From positions 190-64,189 of IMG/VR virus record IMGVR_UViG_3300020577_005931: a stretch of 64,000 nt of DNA, one strand, 5' to 3'. The position numbers and the translations under genes are program-made. The number at the start of each line of letters is the position of its first letter. Position 1 is the first letter of the stretch. Of this stretch, positions 487 to 16,790 are shown piece by piece. Source of the DNA: a virus (taxonomy: Duplodnaviria > Caudoviricetes). The notes below the pieces were generated by a model. That model was given only the letters and a program-made list of their open reading frames with translations, had not been told where the DNA came from and ran no database searches.

Positions 487-531
487 GGTGCGAGCACCTA
501 ACATCACTATTAACCTGAGAGATAAACAAAA

Positions 532-729
532 ATGACACCAGAACAATTTTGCTACTGGTTGTAAGGTAAGGCGGAGCTTGATTCTACACCGCCGGCACCG
601 GAGCAATGGGACTCGATCCGCGAGCATCTTGCGTTGGTATTCGTGAAGGTAACGCGGCCAGTATTTCCTACTGCACCCGGCCTCGTTAAGCCGGGTGTGC
701 TTGAGCCGCCGTTCACTATTATGTGCTGA
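532..729 (+). pseudogene. Small conserved-type phage protein (MTPEQFCYWL.G...EQW..IREHLALVFVKVT) interrupted by in-frame TAA
   Basis: ATG 532 with purine-rich upstream; TAA at 562-564 where Gln (CAA) is expected; frame continues to TGA 727-729. Confidence 0.7.
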
Positions 730-734
730 CTGGT

Positions 735-830
735 GCATAACGTGGAGCCAAGGGGAGAGCGAAATGAGCAAAGCGAATGAGGTAACAGGCTATGAGCGAA
801 GCGAATAGTCCAGCGAGCAAGGCGATCGGT
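735..830. repeat. Degenerate/chimeric attC-like element
   Basis: Starts GCATAAC-gtggagccaag; contains gaggtaacaggc and atgagcgaa blocks shared with the 1786 element; no GTTRRRY end. Confidence 0.55.
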
Positions 831-859
831 GTTCACCGATCCTTTCTGGAGGTATTGCA

Positions 860-1087
860 GTGAGAAGGGAACAGATAGTGGTCACCGATGAGTTGAGCCC
901 TCGCGAGAAGCAGGTGCTAGAAATGCTGAATGAAGGCAAGAGCCAGAAGGAGATTGCCTACTACCTGGGGCTTGATCAAAGCACGGTGTCAACGATCACC
1001 TACAGGATTCGGCAAAAGGCAAACAGGAAAGGGTTCAGGAGGATGGTTGTGTATATCAATAGTGAAGGCGAGATCTGGAGGGGCTGA
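860..1087 (+). CDS. LuxR/GerE-type HTH DNA-binding protein (no ligand domain)
   Basis: LSPREKQVLEMLNEGKSQKEIAYYLGLDQSTV; GGAGG RBS; GTG start. Confidence 0.85.
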   Translation: MRREQIVVTDELSPREKQVLEMLNEGKSQKEIAYYLGLDQSTVSTITYRIRQKANRKGFRRMVVYINSEGEIWRG

Positions 1088-1401
1088 TGGCATTTGCAGT
1101 TGTATGTGACGCCCGCAAGGGTGCAACGAGAGGGGTTCACCAACTGGTCTTGTGTGACCAGAAAATCTGTCCAGGTATTTACTGGACTTCCGACGACAAG
1201 CGACGGGTTCTTCGGTTCAGGAACCGGTCAGTAGCAGAGGAGACATGCAAGCGATTCAAGCACAACAAGTGCCGGGTGGTGCCCTACGAGGAGGCGCTGT
1301 CAATCCTGGCCCGGCAGTTCGATGCTATCCGTGGTTACAACGAACGGATGGGTGAAGTGGCTCACACAAGCGAGGTAGACGACGATGAGTTCAATCGGTA
1401 G
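1087..1401 (+). CDS. Hypothetical phage protein
   Basis: TGATG coupling to upstream gene; 104 aa. Confidence 0.7.
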   Translation: MAFAVVCDARKGATRGVHQLVLCDQKICPGIYWTSDDKRRVLRFRNRSVAEETCKRFKHNKCRVVPYEEALSILARQFDAIRGYNERMGEVAHTSEVDDDEFNR

Positions 1402-1470
1402 GAGACAAATGGAATTAAAGAGCAGACAGGGCTTTTGCGTGATGCGCTGCGCGAATATGCACAAGTTGAC

Positions 1471-1542
1471 GCATAACCAGTAGCTCACTGGCAGCCGAAG
1501 GCTGTCCAGCGCGTAGCGCGATTCTCCAGCGACTTGTTATGA
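1471..1542. repeat. attC-like recombination site
   Basis: GCATAAC ... GTTATGA ends, internal stems ggcagc/gctgtc and cgcg/cgcg; 72 bp. Confidence 0.75.
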
Positions 1543-1572
1543 ACCAGACGATTTAACTACAGAGGAAAAGGT

Positions 1573-1791
1573 ATGGAATGGCGAGAAATAGAAAACGATC
1601 ACCCTATAGATGGCGAGCCTGTATTGCTGTACGAGCCGCACGATATGCTCGCGCCGATTGAGCCTCCTTATGGTGGGTTCATGTTTGTAGGTGTTAAAAA
1701 TCTCGCAGGGGTTTGGTTGAATACCATGACGCTTGAGGAACAATTCCCAAGCCACTGGATGCCGCTACCGGCACCGCCGACTGGTGCATAA
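1573..1791 (+). CDS. DUF551-like phage protein (cassette ORF)
   Basis: WREIE..P.DG..VLL and PSHWMPLPAPP; stop TAA lies inside GCATAAC. Confidence 0.8.
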   Translation: MEWREIENDHPIDGEPVLLYEPHDMLAPIEPPYGGFMFVGVKNLAGVWLNTMTLEEQFPSHWMPLPAPPTGA

Positions 1792-1828
1792 CGATGGAGG
1801 TAACAGGCGAATGAGCGAATTGTTATCT
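1786..1828. repeat. Short (internally deleted) attC-like site
   Basis: GCATAAC ... GTTATCT, only 43 bp. Confidence 0.6.
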
Positions 1829-1852
1829 GACAAGCTGATTTAGGAGAATCAA

Positions 1853-2272
1853 ATGAAGGTTGTGATCAATAAATGTTTCGGCGGCTTCGGCCTGTCAGAG
1901 GCCGGAACCCGCGCCTACTGGGAGCGCAAGGGCAAGCAAGTTTTCGCCGTTGGAACCAGCTGGTTGTTAAAGTCCTACTTCGATGCTCCGCTACCGCCAG
2001 AGTTCGCATTGCCGGAAGGCGGGTTCTTTATGAAGAGCGATCATCCGGAGTACGAGAACTACAACAAGTGGTATTCGGCGCACTCGATGTACGACCGAGA
2101 TATTGAACGAAACGACCCCGATCTAGTAGCGGTGATTGAGTCGCTTGGCGAGGCGGCCAGCGGCGAATGTGCTGCGCTGGTCGTGGTCGAGATTCCTGAC
2201 GATGTCAATTGGGAGATAGCCGAGTACGTCGGCAATGAGCACGTCGCCGAGAAGCGCCGCACTTGGTCCTGA
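1853..2272 (+). CDS. Conserved-type phage hypothetical protein (cassette ORF)
   Basis: MKVVINKCFGGFGLS ... RNDPDLVAVIESLG ... VVEIPDDVNWEI; AGGAG RBS. Confidence 0.85.
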   Translation: MKVVINKCFGGFGLSEAGTRAYWERKGKQVFAVGTSWLLKSYFDAPLPPEFALPEGGFFMKSDHPEYENYNKWYSAHSMYDRDIERNDPDLVAVIESLGEAASGECAALVVVEIPDDVNWEIAEYVGNEHVAEKRRTWS

Positions 2273-2273
2273 C

Positions 2274-2348
2274 AGATAACCCTGCAATAAGCGGCAGGCG
2301 AAGCCTGTCCAGCGAATGAAATGAGCGGCCTTGATGGCCTTGTTATAA
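2274..2348. repeat. attC-like recombination site
   Basis: AGATAAC-cctgcaataag ... cttgatggcctt-GTTATAA; AAG/CTT L boxes with an extra base; 75 bp. Confidence 0.85.
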
Positions 2349-2372
2349 ACCAACGCAGCGAGGCAAGAATGC

Positions 2373-2639
2373 GTGAAAATCTACAAGTACCCACTGAAAG
2401 TAACCGACAAGCAAGTAGTGCTGATGCCGTTCGGCGCTGAGATACTTTGTGTTCAGATGCAGAACGGCGACCCTACCATCTGGGCAGCCGTCGATGAAAT
2501 GAACTCACTGGTTCCGAGAAACATAGCAATGGCTGGTACAGGCCATGAGCTTGGCGACATTTCCAAGTGGAAGTACATAGGCACTGTGCAAATGTACGAT
2601 GGCGCGCTGGTGTGGCACTGTTTCGATCTTGGTTTATAA
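2373..2639 (+). CDS. Conserved-type phage hypothetical protein (cassette ORF)
   Basis: MKIYKYPL ... GTGH ... YIGTVQ..G.LVWHCF; stop inside TTATAAC. Confidence 0.85.
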   Translation: MKIYKYPLKVTDKQVVLMPFGAEILCVQMQNGDPTIWAAVDEMNSLVPRNIAMAGTGHELGDISKWKYIGTVQMYDGALVWHCFDLGL

Positions 2640-2712
2640 CGCCTGAGCTAAGGTGCGCGCCGTCAGGCGCGTCAAACGAGCAGAGCGAGTGGCCTTGAGC
2701 GACGAGTTAGGT
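2634..2712. repeat. attC-like recombination site (best-preserved copy)
   Basis: TTATAAC-gcctga-gctaagg ... ccttgagc-gacga-GTTAGGT; 79 bp imperfect palindrome. Confidence 0.9.
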
Positions 2713-2735
2713 TTCAACCACTGGAGAATATACAA

Positions 2736-2972
2736 ATGAAGACAATGACTATTCCAGCCGACCCGCGCTGCGAAGGCAACAGCAGGGCGCTTGTAACAAA
2801 CGAAATGAAAGCTGAGCACATTGGCGAGTTTTCATGGAATGAGCAGGCTGACTACTACGACGAAAACGGCAAGCTGGTTGAGCACATTGCCACTCGCACA
2901 GTTCCTTGGGATCTGGTGAAAGAGATTTACAAGCGAATGGCGCACTCCGCGTCTTTGCAGGTTGGAACCTAA
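2736..2972 (+). CDS. Hypothetical phage protein (cassette ORF)
   Basis: GGAG RBS; stop TAA inside ACCTAAC. Confidence 0.75.
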   Translation: MKTMTIPADPRCEGNSRALVTNEMKAEHIGEFSWNEQADYYDENGKLVEHIATRTVPWDLVKEIYKRMAHSASLQVGT

Positions 2973-2985
2973 CATGGATTAGACA
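2967..2985. repeat. Half attC-like site (array boundary)
   Basis: ACCTAAC is the exact complement of GTTAGGT at 2706-2712; no partner arm downstream. Confidence 0.55.
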
Positions 2986-3015
2986 TCACCAGACGTAAAA
3001 CACGTAGGAGGAAGT

Positions 3016-3375
3016 ATGACAAAACACACACACCATGCCGAAGAAAATGGCATAGACAAGGCTATTGATGACGCACATATTAAAGTGGCTGAGTTGTACC
3101 TACAGCGCGATGAGTACAAGGCAAGATGTGATGAGCTGTCGGCTCTGACTGCGGGAATGGCGAAAATTATAGCCGTAATAGAACTTGATAAAGACGAGCC
3201 GTATCACCGCAGAGAATACGCCAAGGAATTGGCTGCTAGGGCTGAAGCCATAGCCAAGGCAAGGGGGGCGGCAGTTATGAACAGCCGTGAACAATTCGAG
3301 TCTTGGGCAGCAACAAAGCTACCCGCCAATACTGCCAGACCTACGGCGCACCTCGGCCGGGAGTTGGAGTTATGA
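3016..3375 (+). CDS. Hypothetical phage protein, possibly chimeric
   Basis: AGGAGG RBS; internal MNSREQFESWA looks like a second gene start. Confidence 0.65.
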   Translation: MTKHTHHAEENGIDKAIDDAHIKVAELYLQRDEYKARCDELSALTAGMAKIIAVIELDKDEPYHRREYAKELAARAEAIAKARGAAVMNSREQFESWAATKLPANTARPTAHLGRELEL

Positions 3376-3626
3376 GGCCACCCCCGCAGATATACCTGCA
3401 ATGGTACGGCGACGAAGACCCCAACTTCCTGGCCGAGTCGGAGAAGGAGAGCATTGACCCTAGCACTGGGGAAGTGTCCTGGTGGCTGGAGAAGATCCAC
3501 CCTCACGACATCGCCTACGTGCGGCGGGATTTATTCGAGGAGGTCACTGACGCATTTATCTTGCAGAACGACAGGCTGCGGGCAGAACTGGAGGAACTGC
3601 GCCGTCAACTGGAGCTTCTGAAGTGA
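3372..3626 (+). CDS. Hypothetical phage protein with C-terminal coiled coil
   Basis: ATGA overlap and GGAG RBS favour start 3372 over 3303. Confidence 0.7.
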   Translation: MRPPPQIYLQWYGDEDPNFLAESEKESIDPSTGEVSWWLEKIHPHDIAYVRRDLFEEVTDAFILQNDRLRAELEELRRQLELLK

Positions 3627-3645
3627 CCTACGACATTTGTCGTAC

Positions 3646-3674
3646 TTGCAATGTACTGTGAACAGTTGTACAAT
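3646..3674 (+). promoter_or_regulatory. Sigma70-like promoter of KTSC gene
   Basis: TTGCAA-17 bp-TACAAT. Confidence 0.75.
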
Positions 3675-3700
3675 GAACACCTATCAAAAAGGAGATTTTT

Positions 3701-5757: not shown

Positions 5758-8556
5758 ATGGAAAAGAGAATGTTCCGGTATTACCAAGCCGGCGAGAAGA
5801 CAGCCTGGTTTCCGATAAACGATTCAGATGAAGTTGAGTCCGTTGCTCTGTCGAAGGGCGCGAGAAAACTGACTATCCTTGCGGTATCGGAACTGGTCGA
5901 TGATGACCAGACAGACAAACAAGCACTGTCTTATCGCGGGCCTCTCTACTTTGACATCGATGTCAAAGGAGACCTTGCGTCAGCGATTGAATCCGGTCAG
6001 CGTCTGGTGAAGATGTTGATCGATAAATCTGTTGATGAAAACGATATAAGAGTTTTTTGCTCTGGATCAAAAGGTATTCACGTACTGGTTAACCAGAAGG
6101 TTTTCAGCAATGGAAGGCCTCAAAAAAGACTGCCACATATTTACAAGGAAATGGCACTGTCCTTGTTCGTACCTGGGTTGGATTTCCAGGTGTACTCAGG
6201 AGGACGTGGTAATTCTTTCCGTATACCTGGGGTTCAGCGGGTAGACGGTAAATACCGCTCTCCAATCAGCGTCGAAGAACTGATGACACTGACCACTGAA
6301 GAATATGCGATTGTCTGCGCGGAGCCAAGGACTGACTACTCCCACCCTGAGTGGGTTAATCAGAAGAGCATGGAAATGGAGGTCTTGTTTGAATCGTGCA
6401 AGATTAAATCAGGTAAGGCTGTAAGGGTTGCGGGTGGTCTTGCTGACACAGCTCTGAAGAAGATTGCCACTGACGCACCTAACTGCTTCCGTGACATTGC
6501 TGACTTTAAGAAGATTGCTTCTGATAAAAGTTTCAATGCAGTCGCTATGCAAGTAGGCATACTGATTGCCAGGACCGGGATGGAAGAATCGGTGTATCGA
6601 CCTTTCACCGACAGGTTGGCTGAGAACTCAGCGACCTCTGCGACTTCGGCACGGGGCCGTCGAGAGGAAGTTGAGGCCCAGATTCGCTACATGCAGGCCA
6701 ACAAGAAGTACGAGTTCTCCTGCGGCGGTATGCGTGACCTTCTCAGCAGTCGCCCTTGCGAAGGGTGCCCGCTTGAGTCTGAAGGCAGCGCATTCACCGG
6801 CATGGGTGAGAATCTGGGGATTGAAAAGAGATCGGACGGGTACTACTACATTGGTGCAAGGGCAGACATAAGGATCTCGACCTTCACGATGAGTCCGTTG
6901 AACGTGGTCATTGACCGGCCGCAGGATGGATCTGCACCGAGACGTGCCTACACGATCATGGCGATAGAAAGTAATGGGGTGAAGGTAGGTGAAATTTCTT
7001 TCAACGAATCGGGGTGGAAAAGCTCGGCTAACTTCAAGGATGAGGTTAGTGGGTTGAAGAACCTGGCTTTCATGGGTGGTGACGACCACATCCAGAGGAT
7101 AAAGCACATGACTTACAGCGAAGAAGAGCAGTCTGCCGGTGAGATCATGCAGGTCTACACGGCAGGGGTACACAGTGAGGAACGCCTGGGGAAGCGTCTC
7201 TACACCTACGTGGAGCCAGGATTTTCAATCAACAACGTCAGGGTTGAGGACACCTACAGACTGAAGGGCAGGATCATCTGTCCTCCGTACTTCTCATCAA
7301 CGACGATACCTGAGAAGGGGAGTGTTTCGGCCGACCGGGCGTTGGCGGCTTTCATGCAAATGAACAACCCGCTCAACATTGCCAAGATCCTTGGCTGGTT
7401 CGTCGCCTGCCACCTGAAGACGCATTTCATGGAGATGTACCGGCAGTTCCCAATCCTGAGTGCCTGGGGCAACGCAGGCAGCGGTAAGTCAAACACCATA
7501 GAAGTCGTGGCAAACCTGTGCGGGCTTGATCCGACTTCTGACACGCCGGTCAACGTCGCTTCGCCAACTGCATACGCCATACTTGAATATGCAGCATCAA
7601 CAACAACTATCCCGAGGGTAATGGAGGAATACAACAAGTCCAAGATGCAGTCGAAGAACTACGCAATGATCGGGGAAGTCCTGAAAGCAGCTTGGGGTAG
7701 TGAGACGATTGCAAGAGGTAACCTGGCCAAAAGGAGCAACCAATCGAGCGGAAGAACCGGGGCTTACGTTGAAGCGATAAAGGTCACTGCGCCGATCTGC
7801 ACCGTGAGCGAGCAAGCCCCTGAGATGCCAGCTCTAGTCCATCGTTCATTGCAGGTGATGTTCAAGTCTTCAGAGTTATCAATGGGTAGGCGTGAAGATT
7901 ACTACTACGAAGCCAGGGAAGGGATGGACGATCTCCGCAGGATTGGTAAATTCCTGATGCTTACCGCTTTGTGCAATACCAGGAGTGAGTGGATAAGGGA
8001 GGAGATGGCTAAAGCTAAAGAGTTGGTTTCACGAAAGCTGGATGAACGTCCGAGATATTCCAGACAGGTGATATGGGTGTCAATGAAATGGCTGGAATCC
8101 TGTCTTGAGAAACTGGAGTTGAAGGAGTCACTTAAAGTTCTTCGCAAGGATCTGTTACCAGTGCTGGAAGCGAACATCGCCGGACTTGACGAGGAATCCA
8201 GAAAGGCCAAGACGGAGATCGACAGTGTCATGGAGAGCCTGGCAGTGATGGCCGCCCTGTCCAACCAAGGCCAGGACTACATCAAGCACGGCGTTCATTA
8301 CATCGTCACTGACGATCACATATACATCGATGCGCCGACTTGCCACATCCTCTACAAGAAGTTCAGGCAGCAGTATGAAAGGGAGCCAGCAGTTATCTCA
8401 AGCGTCCAGCAGTTTGTTGTGCTGCTACGCGCCGAGAGCTACTACGAAGGTGACCAGCTCATCGAAGAAATAGCCAGGAACCGGATGTGCATGAAGTTGA
8501 GCAAGGCTGAAATGGCTCGTCGCGGGATTGATGTTTCACTGTTTGAAGGGGATTGA
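5758..8556 (+). CDS. AEP-type primase fused to P-loop helicase-like domain
   Basis: LYFDID and SGSKGIHV AEP motifs; CxxC cluster (FSC...PCEGCP); Walker A GNAGSGKS. Confidence 0.85.
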   Translation: MEKRMFRYYQAGEKTAWFPINDSDEVESVALSKGARKLTILAVSELVDDDQTDKQALSYRGPLYFDIDVKGDLASAIESGQRLVKMLIDKSVDENDIRVFCSGSKGIHVLVNQKVFSNGRPQKRLPHIYKEMALSLFVPGLDFQVYSGGRGNSFRIPGVQRVDGKYRSPISVEELMTLTTEEYAIVCAEPRTDYSHPEWVNQKSMEMEVLFESCKIKSGKAVRVAGGLADTALKKIATDAPNCFRDIADFKKIASDKSFNAVAMQVGILIARTGMEESVYRPFTDRLAENSATSATSARGRREEVEAQIRYMQANKKYEFSCGGMRDLLSSRPCEGCPLESEGSAFTGMGENLGIEKRSDGYYYIGARADIRISTFTMSPLNVVIDRPQDGSAPRRAYTIMAIESNGVKVGEISFNESGWKSSANFKDEVSGLKNLAFMGGDDHIQRIKHMTYSEEEQSAGEIMQVYTAGVHSEERLGKRLYTYVEPGFSINNVRVEDTYRLKGRIICPPYFSSTTIPEKGSVSADRALAAFMQMNNPLNIAKILGWFVACHLKTHFMEMYRQFPILSAWGNAGSGKSNTIEVVANLCGLDPTSDTPVNVASPTAYAILEYAASTTTIPRVMEEYNKSKMQSKNYAMIGEVLKAAWGSETIARGNLAKRSNQSSGRTGAYVEAIKVTAPICTVSEQAPEMPALVHRSLQVMFKSSELSMGRREDYYYEAREGMDDLRRIGKFLMLTALCNTRSEWIREEMAKAKELVSRKLDERPRYSRQVIWVSMKWLESCLEKLELKESLKVLRKDLLPVLEANIAGLDEESRKAKTEIDSVMESLAVMAALSNQGQDYIKHGVHYIVTDDHIYIDAPTCHILYKKFRQQYEREPAVISSVQQFVVLLRAESYYEGDQLIEEIARNRMCMKLSKAEMARRGIDVSLFEGD

Positions 8557-12056: not shown

Positions 12057-15000
12057 ATGACAACTGTAGCCCGACTTCTGGGACTGCCTCGCCGCCCGCG
12101 AGTAGTTCTCGACATAAAAGGTCTTTTAACCCATTCATACTTTTCAGGTAAGGACCTCGAACAGGTCCGCGACAACGAAGGCAATAAGACGAACCCTGCT
12201 GGTTACGGCCTGCAAGTTTTTATTGACCGATACCTCAAGCAAATCCTGGACGGCTTTGCCCCACTCGACATCATCGCTGTATGGGACGGCGGTAACGCAT
12301 ACAGGAAATCAATCTTCCCTGAATACAAGAAGTCCAGAGCCAAAGAAAAGACTGGCCTGGCTGCCCTGCAAGAGCAGGAACTGAACAAGTTATACAAGTA
12401 CGCCAAGGTGATCCTAGCTTACTCCGGTGCGATCAACTTGAGCGTAGACGGGGTTGAAGCTGACGACGTGATCGCACTTCTCACAGAGAAGTTGAAAGGC
12501 AACGTCATGCTTTACACCGTTGACCAGGATTTGATGCAACTCGCTTCTGAAAGAGTAGTTGTGTCATTCAGAGATACCTTCAGTGAAGAGCAGGAATACA
12601 AAGGGATTACCCCTGAGTTCATCCCTGTGTATAAATCCCTCGTCGGTGACACCAGTGACGAATACCCTGGGGTCAAAGGATTCGGCCCGAAAGCGTTTGA
12701 AAAGCTGCTTGAAATTTACGGCGAAGAGATCCTACCTGAGCTTAAAAGAATTGTAGAAGGTCAGCTGTTCGATGAGCTCGATGAAGCCGCCAGGGACAAC
12801 GACTGTAAACTCCTGCGTTTAATCCACGAAAACCGTAGCGAATGGAAGTTGATGTATCAACTGGCCAAGCTGCACCCTGAACTTTGTTACCAGATGAAGA
12901 GGAACGACAAGATAGAGCCTAAGTTCTATACTCGGGCTCCTGACGCTGGAAAAGTATTAGTATTGTTGGAAGAGGCTGGGTGCAGCCACCTTGAGGAAGT
13001 GTTCGCCCCCTTCCTTGGTGGGCAGTCTTTGGCTGACCTTACTTCTTACGACGACAAGGCTGAGCATCTTGTCAGGAACCTGGCTGAAAGCCCTGTAGTT
13101 GCATTCGACTTTGAAACCTACGATCCGGTTAAGCACCAAGCCTTTATAGAAGCAGCCTCTGACAAAACAAAAGCTGACGGGTTTGTCGACACGTTGTCGT
13201 CGATCCCTACTGGAGGGGCGTTTACCTACGGTAACAATCTCCAGTACACCTTCTACGTTCCTGAGCTTCACAGAGAGACAGATAACGTATCAAACGGGGT
13301 GTCTGATATCCTCAAGCATCTTGATGAGTTCTGGGGGGGCCCTATAGCAGTTCACAACGCGGCTTTTGAATGCGTAATTGCTAAACTGAATTACGGGGTA
13401 AATCTCAGCCGCCCTGTAGACACCATGATAATGTCTAGCTACGTCGATGAAAATGAAAGAAGCGGGTTGAAGTCTTGCTCCAAGAAATATCTCGGTCACG
13501 AGCAGACAAGCTATCGGCAACTGATGGAAGAGACTGGCGCTACTGACATGAGAGGAGTTAGTGGGCAGGAAGTGCTGTCGTATGGCTGCGATGACGCCCT
13601 CATGACCGCTCACTTGTGGAAACTGTTTGACCTCGTCTGTACTCTCGAAGGCCACATAGATTTCTACCTTGAGAACGAGACAAGCCCTGTCCACATACTG
13701 AATGATTCTTTCATCGCTGGAGTCAATGTTGACTTTGCCCGTATGAGAGAACTGTCTGACTCTGATAAGCAAACGGTAGAGGAAGGGGTGGCCAAGATTC
13801 GTGGGCTTCTGAAAGACAACTGCACAGAGATAAATGAGGCTAATGCTGAGCAGTTCTTTAACGCTGACAAGGAAGCGTTAAGAGCTAAGTTGGACGACAA
13901 GGCCAAGTCAAAGGGTTGGGCTCGTGATCGAGTTAAAGCAGAGATGGATAAGGTTCTTCTGGAGTACACAGGTAAAACTGCTTACATCCCGCTGACTCTT
14001 GTAAAGCCTGAGGTAGATTTCAAGCCAACACCAGCACAGATACGAAAGGTGATTGAGCTCCTTGGTTGGCCGGTTGAGTTATCTGCCAAACTGAAGAGTG
14101 CTTCAGCTTCATCGGTAACAGAATTTTTGATGGCAGTGGACGCTCCTGTTACAGACGAAACGCAGGTAATGTTCCTGGAGGAGCTTGCTGCAGCCGCCAA
14201 GCACCTTAACAAATACAAGGAGTCTCCTGAGCTGGTCGAGGCTTTCGTTAATCTATGCTCCTCAATCATGTCTTCCAGCATGAAAGAGACCGTGGTTGGT
14301 GACGAACTTAATTTCGGTAGCCCTGTGCAAATGAAAGAACTTTTCTACCTGAAACTCGGGCTCCCTGTAAGGGAGCGCACCAAGAAAACAAAAGGAAGTT
14401 TCAGGGATGTTAACGGGCTCCCTGGCAGCCCTGCTACTGATGAAGTGGCGGTGATGTCAGCCCTCCTGAATGACTGCCCTGAAGGCGACTGGAGAAGGGA
14501 TGTGTTGAAGACCCTACTCGATGTTAAAGAGGCTATGACCAGAGAGAGTTTGTTCTATTCAAAATATCCTCACTGGGTTCACCCAAGGGACGGAGTAGTC
14601 CATCCAAGCATCAGGAACTGTGGAACGGTAACTAGGAGACCAACAGGTGGGTCTCCCAACCTCCTACAGGTTTCCAAAGGCCAAACTAGATCCATATTCA
14701 TCCCTAGATACACAGGTGAAGTAATAATCTCCATCGACTTCTCAGGTCAGGAACTGAGACTCACTGGTAGCGAAAGTAAGGACAAGGTCTTGATCGACTG
14801 TTACGTAGGCGGGGGTGTGCGGGTAGACGAAGATGGCATGGAACACCCAGTTGTAAAGGATGTTCACTCTGTCACTTCATGTGCATTCACTACTGACATC
14901 GTCGCCAGGGAAGCAGGTAAAGAGTGGCTACCTAAACTTGAGATGAATAGTAACGGCTTCGTTGATTATGATTTCTTCAGGAAGGTGATGTTGCACGACA

Positions 15001-16790
15001 CTGAAAAGAACGGCCCTCTCGAGTTGTTTGGAGACTATACAGCCAAGATGGTCAAGGTGTTCAACAACGTAAGGAAGATGGCGAAAGTTGTTAACTTCCT
15101 CCTTATCTATGGCGGTGATTACCACACCCTGGCTAAGAAGTTGGGTATACCTGAAGAATTCTCCAAGAAGTTGATGGAGTTAGTTTTCAAATCCTACGGG
15201 AGACTGGAGCCTTGGCAGAATGAAACCATAGCATTCGGAGAAAAACACGGTTACGTGCAAACTGCTTATGGCACTCGTCGGCACCTCACAGATGCAATCG
15301 TTAGTCGAGATGAGTTTGTTAAAGGTAGGATGGAGCGCCAGGCAGTCAACTCGACCATACAGGGGTGTTTACAAGCAGGTAGTTTGGTTTCGACAGACAC
15401 AGGGCTAAGGCCTATAGAAAGTTTAGTCGGGGAAGTTTTTGAAGCCGACACTGGGGTTGGGTTCTTCACCGCTACCGCCATTGAGATGGGGAAATGCAAG
15501 GCGGCTCGTATCACTACCTCTAGCGGGTTGGAGATAAACTGCGACATAAGGCATAAAGTAAAAAATTCCAACCTAGAGTGGGTTGACTTTAACGCCCTCA
15601 AGGTAGGGGACGAGATAGCTCTACCATCACTAACGGATAGTGGCTTCACTACATCAGATTACGATGTATCTTGGCCATTTGTCGTAGGGTATTGGCTAGG
15701 TGATGGGTGCTTGATAACCCGTAAGGGACCGAGGAAGACTGATAAACACTTTAGGACCACATTTTCCCTGTGCGGAGGGGAAACTAAAAAACTTATCCTA
15801 GAGGAAATAGTTAGTTTCCTTGCCTCTGAGGGCATTACAGCTATCTTTTCTACTCAAACAAAAGGAAGAAATAAACCTCTTTACGTTGTCACGGTAAACA
15901 GAGCAGAAGATATCAAAGTTATAAGAGGTTGGGGGGTTGTTGAGTCAAACGCCAGGGAAAAGAGAATACCGACCAAAATACTGCAATCTCCTACTGAGGT
16001 AAGAGAGGAGTTTTTAAGGGGGTTTCTATTGGCTGACGGAGCCCGCCGGTTGGGTTACAGGGTCCACACCCCCAATTTAGAGTTGCTGACTCAATTGAGA
16101 ATCTTAGGGGCGTCTATAGGGTTAGATTCTACAAGTGCTGTTACTCCAACTGGAAACTACAGCGAATTCAGTAACTCTTTCATCAGCAGTAGAAGTTACC
16201 CCCACGAATTGATAACTAGACAATTATCAGAAAGTAAGGGAGAAGAGTGGAAGGTTCCTACTGCTAGGAAAGATCGTATCAGTATAGCGGATAGACGAGC
16301 CATGACTTGTGGGAAGGTTAGCCAGAAAGTCGCTGAGAGAGTTTTGAAGAAATACGCGCCTGCGGCGGAAGTTTACAGATTTGATCGGGTGGTCTCATTA
16401 GAGGTTTTAGACAAAGAAGTTAATACTTACACGCTATCAGTCGACCACCCACTCCACCAATTCGTAGCTGACGGGGTAATACACAAAAATTGTGCAGCTG
16501 ACATACTTAAAGTCGTACTTAACAAATGCTACTCAACAAATCTTTTTAACGAAACAAAATCGACACTGATTGCCCCTGTTTACGACGAAACAGTGTCATC
16601 CGTCCCGGCCCATCACGCCGTCGAATACTGCTTCAGGATGCAGGAGTACATGAACATCACTCCACCTGGGCATGCTATCCCAATGATGGGTGAGGTCAGT
16701 ATCGGCAAGAACTGGAACGAACAGGAGGAGCTTGGGGACCACCCAAGCGCCAGGCGTATTGAAGCAGCAATAGAGAGGGCTTTCTCATGA
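12057..16790 (+). CDS. polA: DNA polymerase family A with N-terminal 5'-3' exonuclease, 3'-5' exonuclease and intein
   Basis: EADDVI, DQD, GDTSD..PGVKGFG (5' exo); FDFET, HNAAFE, YGCDD (3' exo); DFSGQELR, KVVNFLLIYG, VYDE (motifs A/B/C). Confidence 0.95.
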   Translation: MTTVARLLGLPRRPRVVLDIKGLLTHSYFSGKDLEQVRDNEGNKTNPAGYGLQVFIDRYLKQILDGFAPLDIIAVWDGGNAYRKSIFPEYKKSRAKEKTGLAALQEQELNKLYKYAKVILAYSGAINLSVDGVEADDVIALLTEKLKGNVMLYTVDQDLMQLASERVVVSFRDTFSEEQEYKGITPEFIPVYKSLVGDTSDEYPGVKGFGPKAFEKLLEIYGEEILPELKRIVEGQLFDELDEAARDNDCKLLRLIHENRSEWKLMYQLAKLHPELCYQMKRNDKIEPKFYTRAPDAGKVLVLLEEAGCSHLEEVFAPFLGGQSLADLTSYDDKAEHLVRNLAESPVVAFDFETYDPVKHQAFIEAASDKTKADGFVDTLSSIPTGGAFTYGNNLQYTFYVPELHRETDNVSNGVSDILKHLDEFWGGPIAVHNAAFECVIAKLNYGVNLSRPVDTMIMSSYVDENERSGLKSCSKKYLGHEQTSYRQLMEETGATDMRGVSGQEVLSYGCDDALMTAHLWKLFDLVCTLEGHIDFYLENETSPVHILNDSFIAGVNVDFARMRELSDSDKQTVEEGVAKIRGLLKDNCTEINEANAEQFFNADKEALRAKLDDKAKSKGWARDRVKAEMDKVLLEYTGKTAYIPLTLVKPEVDFKPTPAQIRKVIELLGWPVELSAKLKSASASSVTEFLMAVDAPVTDETQVMFLEELAAAAKHLNKYKESPELVEAFVNLCSSIMSSSMKETVVGDELNFGSPVQMKELFYLKLGLPVRERTKKTKGSFRDVNGLPGSPATDEVAVMSALLNDCPEGDWRRDVLKTLLDVKEAMTRESLFYSKYPHWVHPRDGVVHPSIRNCGTVTRRPTGGSPNLLQVSKGQTRSIFIPRYTGEVIISIDFSGQELRLTGSESKDKVLIDCYVGGGVRVDEDGMEHPVVKDVHSVTSCAFTTDIVAREAGKEWLPKLEMNSNGFVDYDFFRKVMLHDTEKNGPLELFGDYTAKMVKVFNNVRKMAKVVNFLLIYGGDYHTLAKKLGIPEEFSKKLMELVFKSYGRLEPWQNETIAFGEKHGYVQTAYGTRRHLTDAIVSRDEFVKGRMERQAVNSTIQGCLQAGSLVSTDTGLRPIESLVGEVFEADTGVGFFTATAIEMGKCKAARITTSSGLEINCDIRHKVKNSNLEWVDFNALKVGDEIALPSLTDSGFTTSDYDVSWPFVVGYWLGDGCLITRKGPRKTDKHFRTTFSLCGGETKKLILEEIVSFLASEGITAIFSTQTKGRNKPLYVVTVNRAEDIKVIRGWGVVESNAREKRIPTKILQSPTEVREEFLRGFLLADGARRLGYRVHTPNLELLTQLRILGASIGLDSTSAVTPTGNYSEFSNSFISSRSYPHELITRQLSESKGEEWKVPTARKDRISIADRRAMTCGKVSQKVAERVLKKYAPAAEVYRFDRVVSLEVLDKEVNTYTLSVDHPLHQFVADGVIHKNCAADILKVVLNKCYSTNLFNETKSTLIAPVYDETVSSVPAHHAVEYCFRMQEYMNITPPGHAIPMMGEVSIGKNWNEQEELGDHPSARRIEAAIERAFS
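15366..16490 (+). mobile_element. Intein with LAGLIDADG homing endonuclease (375 aa) in polA
   Basis: Starts CLQAGSLV after NSTIQG, ends GVIHKN before CAADILK; VVGYWLGDG and LRGFLLADG blocks. Confidence 0.95.

Follow-up and report, generated by a model that had tools for sequence, protein, structure and literature searches.

An integrase-less array of inverted integron-type gene cassettes in an uncultured wastewater phage

Here, we describe an array of integron-type gene cassettes in a stretch of 64,000 nt (hereafter the window) that covers positions 190 to 64,189, and with them nearly all, of the 64,189-base IMG/VR virus record IMGVR_UViG_3300020577_005931. The array sits in the early operon of a wastewater phage. 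Our analysis confirmed that window positions 1471–2973 hold four attC sites and four cassettes of open reading frame (ORF) size, and that at least four small accessory genes of the phage are built as genuine swappable cassettes of the integron type. With four sites within 1.3 kb and no intI in the 64-kb record, the array is an attC cluster that lacks an integrase (CALIN). In our reading, to which we assign a probability of about 0.75, these are genuine integron cassettes in inverted orientation that stem from a phage-specific pool, with an integron integrase (IntI) presumably acting in trans.

The attC sites of the window and of a wider phage family

A covariance model, termed R1, was built from an alignment of 32 sites of other IMG/VR phage contigs, with the window sites excluded. 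Across the 64-kb window, R1 matched exactly four sites, all on the minus strand: S4 (2634–2712; 48.5 bits, E = 1.4e-8), S3 (2274–2348; 28.8 bits, E = 5e-4), S2 (1786–1828; 24.4 bits, E = 0.005) and S1 (1471–1542; 16.4 bits, E = 0.34). No further site at E < 1 was found outside 1471–2712. The attC sites proposed in a first-pass annotation of the sequence were thus recovered by a model built without them. Its array extent of 735–2990 stood for 1471–2973 but not for the start near 735: the first full site begins at 1471, and the box GCATAAC (738–744) is an orphan that is followed by attC fragments only. From S1 to S4, the sites are imperfect palindromes of 72, 43, 75 and 79 bp bounded by xxxTAAC and GTTAxxx, and all four have the TAAC/GTTA outer boxes. 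S4 is the best site and is 97% identical to positions 3247–3312 of locus L018; its GCTAAGG is paired with CCTT-G-AGC, by which a bulged G is left over. S1 and S3 carry GGCTG-T-CC. The extra G (in S1 and S3 also an extra T) lies on the 3' arm of the plus strand, as in an attC bottom strand. S1 is chimeric and weak and folds with its boxes paired, and S2 is short, with an interior of 29 nt and a truncated stem. A reading of the palindromes as repetitive extragenic palindrome (REP)-like elements or terminators was rejected, as T-runs are missing from the sites and none of them overlaps with a terminator-like site on the plus strand. A promoter-like site was not found between 1471 and 2973 either.

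The boxes lie where the first-pass annotation had placed them (GTTATGA 1536 / GCATAAC 1786, GTTATCT 1822 / AGATAAC 2274, GTTATAA 2342 / TTATAAC 2634 and GTTAGGT 2706 / ACCTAAC 2967). As it had claimed, each ORF stands between two mutually complementary boxes, and this complementarity extends past 7 nt (11/12, 10/12, 12/12 and 13/14 for the successive ORFs), whereas the two boxes of a single site match at merely 7–8/12. Between 401 and 3100, three arm pairs (12-nt arms anchored on GTTA/TAAC, one mismatch allowed) were observed versus 0.0115 expected, and 0/2000 dinucleotide shuffles reached three. For three ORFs, the TAA within the TAAC box serves as the stop codon (1789–1791, 2637–2639 and 2970–2972), likewise as first noted, and the fourth ORF ends at a TGA (2270–2272) just ahead of its box.

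The cassettes follow one another on the plus strand, each attC lying upstream of its own gene, with the ORF to its right. Cassette alpha (1477–1791, 315 nt) comprises the S1 interior and a DUF551 ORF (1573–1791), beta (1792–2279, 488 nt) an ORF of 139 aa assigned to phrog_16527 (1853–2272), and gamma (2280–2639, 360 nt) a DUF7352 ORF (2373–2639) within perfect 12-nt terminal inverted repeats. Delta (2640–2972, 333 nt) has an ORF of 78 aa that belongs to no family (2736–2972) and is present or absent across wastewater populations. With DUF551, DUF7352 and phrog_16527, the cargo of the array region is of phage type, in line with the typical phage accessory genes named in the first-pass annotation. 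When the cassettes are circularised in silico, an outer stem of 12 bp is added to the sites and folding improves: the energies (in the order alpha to delta) are −20.3, −5.4, −17.4 and −19.7 kcal/mol, compared with −17.6, −3.0, −11.2 and −14.3 kcal/mol in the array.

Searching with short patterns derived from the window sites brought up about 20 more IMG/VR contigs that carry such sites, with dozens of ORF-sized units flanked by GTTAxxxxxCAx...xTGxxxxxTAAC. The best match of R1 in the test set was a real class 1 integron site, the attC of aadA1 (53.8 bits), on the coding strand just after aadA1, and the phage sites resemble attC-aadA1 as much as they resemble one another. In 63 bacterial loci carrying IntI1, the model gave 45 matches, 45/45 on the strand expected from integron polarity; in addition, it found the attC sites of the phages TJE1 and PH101 (29.8–45.6 bits). 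In an alignment of 72 distinct sites, 90% of the cells of the L helix are paired and compensatory changes occur at 8/9 pairs, the covariation score being 0.338 versus 0.117 in shuffles (0/500 reach it). The TAAC/GTTA is invariant in 71–72 of the 72 sites, the first three box letters stray from strict RYYY, and the bulged column is conserved across the alignment. The features recognized by IntI, namely AAC/GTT, the bulged G and the unpaired spacer, are conserved as well. Altogether, these data show that the sites are attC homologues under structural selection. The footprint of circular cassettes was also shown for the family: in 56 cassettes and 73 sites, box complementarity at the 8 variable positions amounts to 6.46 across the cassette, versus 3.95 within the site and 4.05 in random pairs. 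The ORF ends at the TAA of the box in 34/56 cassettes, and start codons follow the GTTA box at a median distance of 28.5 nt. Several arrays per phage genome occur in the family, and identical interiors of 34 nt were found beside unrelated genes.

The R1 matches of the window are all on the minus strand, by which the plus strand reads as the attC bottom strand, and the window genes are all on the plus strand; these genes are therefore inverted relative to canonical cassettes. The window and 16 further loci, 17 phage sources in all, supplied 55 inter-site segments for a comparison of polarity. ORFs with a ribosome-binding site (RBS) in front were antisense to the attC top strand in 46/46 callable cassettes, and the purine skew was antisense in 54/55 segments. 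In contrast, the same script found 13/13 cassettes of the bacterial class 1 control in sense orientation. This shows that genes are uniformly antisense to attC in these phage arrays. Among the published phage arrays, the genes are sense, on the top strand, in TJE1 (L049) and antisense in PH101/H101 (L050).

Directly behind delta, the array ends in an element (2973–3015, plus strand; C ATGGA TTAGAC ATCACC AGACGT...ACGT) that stands just before the RBS of a gene at 3016–3375. The consensus shared by array ends is TAA/C AyNNN TTAKAC ATCAMC WGACG-loop-CGTCAC (the slash marks the crossover), from which the window copy has diverged. The element was found at the array ends of L010, L017 (two arrays), L001, L014 and L018, and a pattern search added L132, L136, L140, L154, L164 and L168, each after a different xxxTAAC box and all containing R1 attC matches. 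An element of about 45 nt thus stands at the crossover end of at least 12 arrays. The pattern used for the search has 17 nt, and most of its matches are due to chance, 38/47 lacking a nearby TAAC; of the nine flagged matches, L145 is also without the element. The genes downstream are unrelated between arrays, and no protein is conserved beside it. Read on the attC top strand, its core is GTCTAA-TCCATG/TTAGGT, with an inverted CTAA/TTAG pair (CTAA-N6-TTAG) around the crossover, which we take to resemble the core of attI1. The element is located where attI would sit and at the population-variable junction 2972/2973; in the metagenome run X2, a different cassette abuts 2970 at the element. From this sequence and position, we infer a putative attI-like entry site. 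Dozens of uncultured phages have the same layout together with this conserved, putative entry site.

Crossover position, cassette turnover and the enzyme

The cross-matching footprint is symmetric and can therefore not tell a plus-strand G/TT crossover from one at TAA/C. Four lines of evidence point to TAA/C on the plus strand, which is the canonical G/TTA on the minus strand. The strand polarity places the crossover at TAA/C and not in the plus-strand GTT boxes. Besides that, where different loci share a block of homology, its end falls no more than a few bases away from the canonical crossover, as with L003 9160, which is aligned to window 741, and L003 10519, which is aligned to L018 1535. 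In L001, the outermost box on the left, GTATAAC, is complementary to the GTTATAC just past the last box, as expected from insertion at AA/C of one small palindromic site. Finally, a Logan contig of the wastewater run X1 joins 2636 to 2970, skipping 333 nt, which is exactly cassette delta, with TAAC shared by both sides. Hence, the circular-cassette footprint recognized in the first-pass annotation was upheld, but its crossover at G/TT in the plus-strand GTT boxes has to be replaced by TAA/C.

The cassette content was shown to vary at TAA/C. A second contig of the X1 run spans 2611–2760, one X2 contig is identical up to 2280 and then runs into a different attC, and another X2 contig matches from 2970 on and is preceded by a different gene end. 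With delta present, skipped or exchanged for another cassette, three states exist at the junction 2972/2973, each seen in single contigs at a likeness threshold of 88%. Gain or loss of cassettes at the boxes, which had been anticipated, is thus seen in other wastewater samples, although at TAA/C instead of the plus-strand GTT. Similarly, L005 4392–4650 and two inverted copies in L017 are 88–96% identical and represent the same cassette in different contexts, L003 7641–7960 matches L018 2920–3242, and a 98%-identical cassette is common to L012 and L014.

Rearranged units were also encountered elsewhere. The 14.6-kb contig L017 holds one cassette twice (7657–7914 and 14209–14466, 96.5% identical), in two oppositely oriented arrays. 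In a 6.9-kb activated-sludge contig of X2, position 3002 adjoins 1012, going back by 1991, and a diverged block covers 1198–1381; a related phage thus has the same units in another order.

Along the genes, each cassette consists of a C, the attC interior, the GTTAxxx box, about 25 nt with the RBS, the ORF and xxxTAA. In the mechanism we propose, recombination occurs at TAA/C, where an integron integrase would recombine the folded bottom strand of the circular cassette, which is here the plus and sense strand. This integrase might be supplied in trans by the host or by a mobile integron residing in the same cell; wastewater is rich in both. New cassettes would enter at the promoter-distal end of the array, at the attI-like element 2973–3015, and be expressed from the phage operon. 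They would come from a pool specific to phages, shared and reshuffled among many uncultured ones, and the arrays were possibly seeded by the attG-type route of Loot et al. (bioRxiv 10.1101/2022.09.11.507474). If the entry site keeps one orientation with respect to the operon, expression would be limited to cassettes with a gene antisense to attC, which may have split the phage pool from the bacterial one. On the basis of published integron biology, we further speculate that the bottom strand, being on the non-template strand, would be the lagging-strand template if genes are co-directional with replication, and would fold most easily there. In a wider sense, tailed phages of wastewater and aquatic bacteria might run their own version of the integron, with a dedicated attI-like site, a borrowed integrase from a host or helper, and a backwards, phage-only pool in which attC lies ahead of the gene, the stop codon falls within the crossover box and the sense strand, as the lagging-strand template, is the recombinogenic one. 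We offer this generalization tentatively, with rather more doubt than confidence.

Several observations weigh against the proposed reading. As the first-pass annotation had stated for the array, no integron integrase (TIGR02249) was found in the window's record, nor in 25 other records with sites: nothing exceeded 60 bits versus a cut-off of 265 in these 26 records, several of which are rated 94–100% complete. A comparison of the terminase by protein atlas and homologue search returned no host name, and a search of 185,579 species genomes for the exact two-arm attC pattern gave no match. The 333-nt joint is represented by one Logan contig only, with a shorter side of 26 nt and at the 88% threshold. 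Two relatives with 66–67% primase identity (L046 and L048) have no attC in the equivalent region, and they share the backbone only from about 4040 onward. The assembled relatives are thus uninformative, and gain or loss in this lineage is seen in metagenome contigs only. Moreover, copies of one cassette (88–96% identical) have three different attC interiors, and chimeric attC sites with breakpoints inside the site occur in L003 (upstream of 7641, compared with L018) and in the window (S1).

A lack of linkage between cassette and attC, which the differing interiors had suggested, was rejected, as it is overturned by the ends of the homology blocks and the wastewater contigs, which place the canonical crossover on the minus strand. 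The breakpoints inside attC sites, including a wastewater contig that diverges within S1 at 1520, imply that homologous or illegitimate recombination is needed as well. Together, the chimeric sites, the truncated S2 and an attC-less remnant upstream of the array (503–744) indicate that within-site recombination and slippage also remodel the arrays.

With regard to the enzyme, IntI acting in trans is what we infer. Viral contigs that do bear an IntI (L041–L043, 37–38% identical to IntI1) contain no sites of this phage attC family, so that no phage-encoded integrase is linked to it. A tyrosine recombinase of whatever type was not found in most of the records. An Xer-like tyrosine recombinase of 349 aa was noticed near the ends of two related contigs, L026–L033 (records G012 and G020). 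Against the IntI model it reaches 60 + 39 bits, far short of the cut-off, and was rejected as the enzyme, since these contigs match a site pattern but have no model matches. Primase homologues with 38–40% identity occur in Pseudomonas genomes, which is a weak hint that Pseudomonas might be the host.

An alternative that we regard as improbable is that the hairpins are conserved linkers for homologous recombination, for instance by phage single-strand annealing proteins, with the fold kept for a role in the mRNA. Identical 34-nt interiors beside unrelated genes, breakpoints inside chimeric attC sites, 26 records without IntI and the position of the hairpins on the transcribed sense strand would all agree with such linkers. 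However, this explanation predicts neither the cross-gene complementarity of the boxes (6.46 versus 3.95 of 8) nor joints exactly at TAA/C with only 4 shared letters. The conserved AAC/GTT, bulged G and unpaired spacer also speak against it, as does the closeness of the sites to attC-aadA1, which equals their closeness to one another. In addition, related phage sites are substrates of IntI1 (PMC9892861).

An unrecognised, non-canonical recombinase of a phage or satellite, recognising the terminal element and the attC-like hairpins, is likewise an unlikely explanation, given that no protein is conserved beside the element, most records are free of tyrosine recombinases and the hairpin features fit IntI substrates. 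In its favour, attI sites are normally specific to their cognate integrase, so that an element of about 45 nt conserved across unrelated phages without IntI counts for such an enzyme; the polarity, uniformly opposite to that of bacterial integrons, does so as well. Passive capture of a piece of a bacterial chromosomal integron with no role for the phage has the precedent of sedentary integron fragments in Vibrio phages (PMC9892861), but is very improbable in view of the phage-type cargo, the co-orientation of the genes with the phage operon, the RBSs at a median of 28 nt after the box, the several arrays per phage genome, the absence of this attC type from the species genomes and the polarity opposite to bacterial arrays. 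We therefore retain inverted integron cassettes from a phage pool as the preferred reading.

Flanking units and other genes of the record

Upstream of the array, small plus-strand ORFs come after a DNA methylase gene (31–486). An orphan ACCTAAC box (496–502, plus strand) directly follows the methylase stop codon, with no attC after it, and is a candidate for the outer limit of the array. It is succeeded by the cassette remnant without an attC of its own (503–744, plus strand), which contains an ORF at 532–729 and closes with the box GCATAAC at 738–744. Window 529–741 is 86% identical to L003 9160–9372, a cassette of L003 between two attC matches, and the homology of the remnant begins exactly at the G/TT crossover of L003. 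The ORF (MTPEQFCYWL-stop-GKAEL...) has an in-frame TAA at 562–564, where the L003 cassette has CAA (Gln), and a contig of run X22 spans 279–1442 without differences, this TAA included. The ORF is probably a decaying cassette gene.

A multi-gene unit follows at 745–1476 on the plus strand and encodes a LuxR/GerE-type helix-turn-helix protein (860–1087), an ORF of 104 aa (1087–1401) and a small ORF (1409–1483). Its genes are preceded by attC fragments (745–860), and a complete attC is absent there according to R1. Within these fragments, a perfect hairpin (824–843; GATCGGTG-TT-CACCGATC) is located just upstream of the LuxR-type gene.

At the level of the record, the phage genes comprise a family A DNA polymerase, helicases, a lambda-type large terminase and an S49 prohead protease, and the sequencing runs containing the window stretch come from wastewater and activated sludge. 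In IMG/VR, neither the hypothetical empty site GTATAACATGAGTTATAC nor relatives of the primase were found, and a DNA similarity search with window 500–3700 and L001 3000–5100 gave no match in 50,697 cultured phage records. The closest assembled relative, the Logan contig L045 (96% primase identity), begins at window 3646, just right of the array. The short-read assemblies of four runs fragment across 1400–2800. Both are consistent with repeats or population heterogeneity in the array. Further downstream, the family A DNA polymerase ORF (12057–16790, 1577 aa) shows intein-splicing and LAGLIDADG matches at about residues 1147–1478; the polymerases of L046 and L048 have about 1200 aa, compared with 1577 aa in the window.

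Comparison with known systems

Integrons are regarded as a bacterial device, and attC clusters in phages have until now been interpreted as a means of moving bacterial cassettes. CALINs in bacteriophages as such are already known from the work of Qi, Rajabal, Ghaly, Tetu and Gillings 2023 (PMC9892861). This article reports that IntI1 recombined five of six tested sites from TJE1, PH101 and P12002L, and calls these phage arrays typical in structure. They share with the window the clustering of attC sites without an integrase in a phage genome. Differences concern the polarity of genes versus attC, of which we found no discussion in the parts of the article consulted, as well as two features that are not reported there, a conserved element at the array end and a cassette pool shared by phages. 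The sites of PH101 and TJE1 have the same xxATAAC...GTTATxx form, matched by R1. As in the window, the annotated genes of Pseudoalteromonas phage PH101/H101 are on the attC bottom strand, whereas TJE1 is canonical, with genes on the top strand.

The present data differ from that work in the uniform inversion, for which bacterial arrays and TJE1 served as controls, in a cargo made up of phage genes whose stop codon lies within the crossover box, in how large the shared phage pool is and in the conserved attI-like terminus. Phage-gene, mirror-image cassettes that are shared and stand at a conserved site would suggest site-specific exchange of single genes as a source of mosaic accessory regions. 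If this holds true, integron integrases act on infecting phage DNA, and phages without an integrase swap accessory or anti-defence genes singly during infection. The attC model and the terminal element together provide a sequence signature for exchangeable phage genes in metagenomes.

Compared with the aadA1 attC of class 1 integrons (the 59-base element), the phage sites have the same R''/R' boxes, 5-nt unpaired spacer and variable centre, and the same GTT-C-AAG / CTT-AAC L box with an extra base. Class 1 integrons differ in that the genes lie sense to attC, with intI1, attI1 and Pc next to the array; the window array has antisense genes, no intI and expression from the phage operon. An aadA-type class 1 cassette (L036 9050–9865) bears terminal inverted repeats of 11 nt that match perfectly (GTTAGACATCA / TGATGTCTAAC), and complementarity past the 7-nt boxes is therefore not peculiar to phages. 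Sedentary chromosomal integrons, such as that with the Vibrio cholerae repeats, hold many unrelated cassettes with nearly identical attC interiors. The phage family likewise has near-identical interiors beside unrelated cassettes, but its pool is borne by phages and not by one chromosome, it has no integrase and its genes are inverted.

In T4-type phages, promoter-early stem-loops (PeSLs) are reported to bound shuffled genes (Arbiol et al. 2010). PeSLs are thought to act via homologous recombination and carry promoters. Like the sites described here, they are short conserved hairpins between small phage accessory genes and are tied to modular shuffling; they differ in that they are not known to have AAC/GTT boxes, bulged bases or cross-cassette complementarity. 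Finally, IntI inserts cassettes at genomic attG sites, which gives rise to single attC sites lacking an integrase (SALINs) and small CALINs, and attC loss by slippage has been described in the same work (Loot et al., bioRxiv 10.1101/2022.09.11.507474). The attG route is a known way for cassettes onto DNA without an integron platform, and the slippage fits the attC-less remnant at 503–744. In contrast to the diverse secondary sites used on that route, the phage arrays end in a conserved, recurring element.

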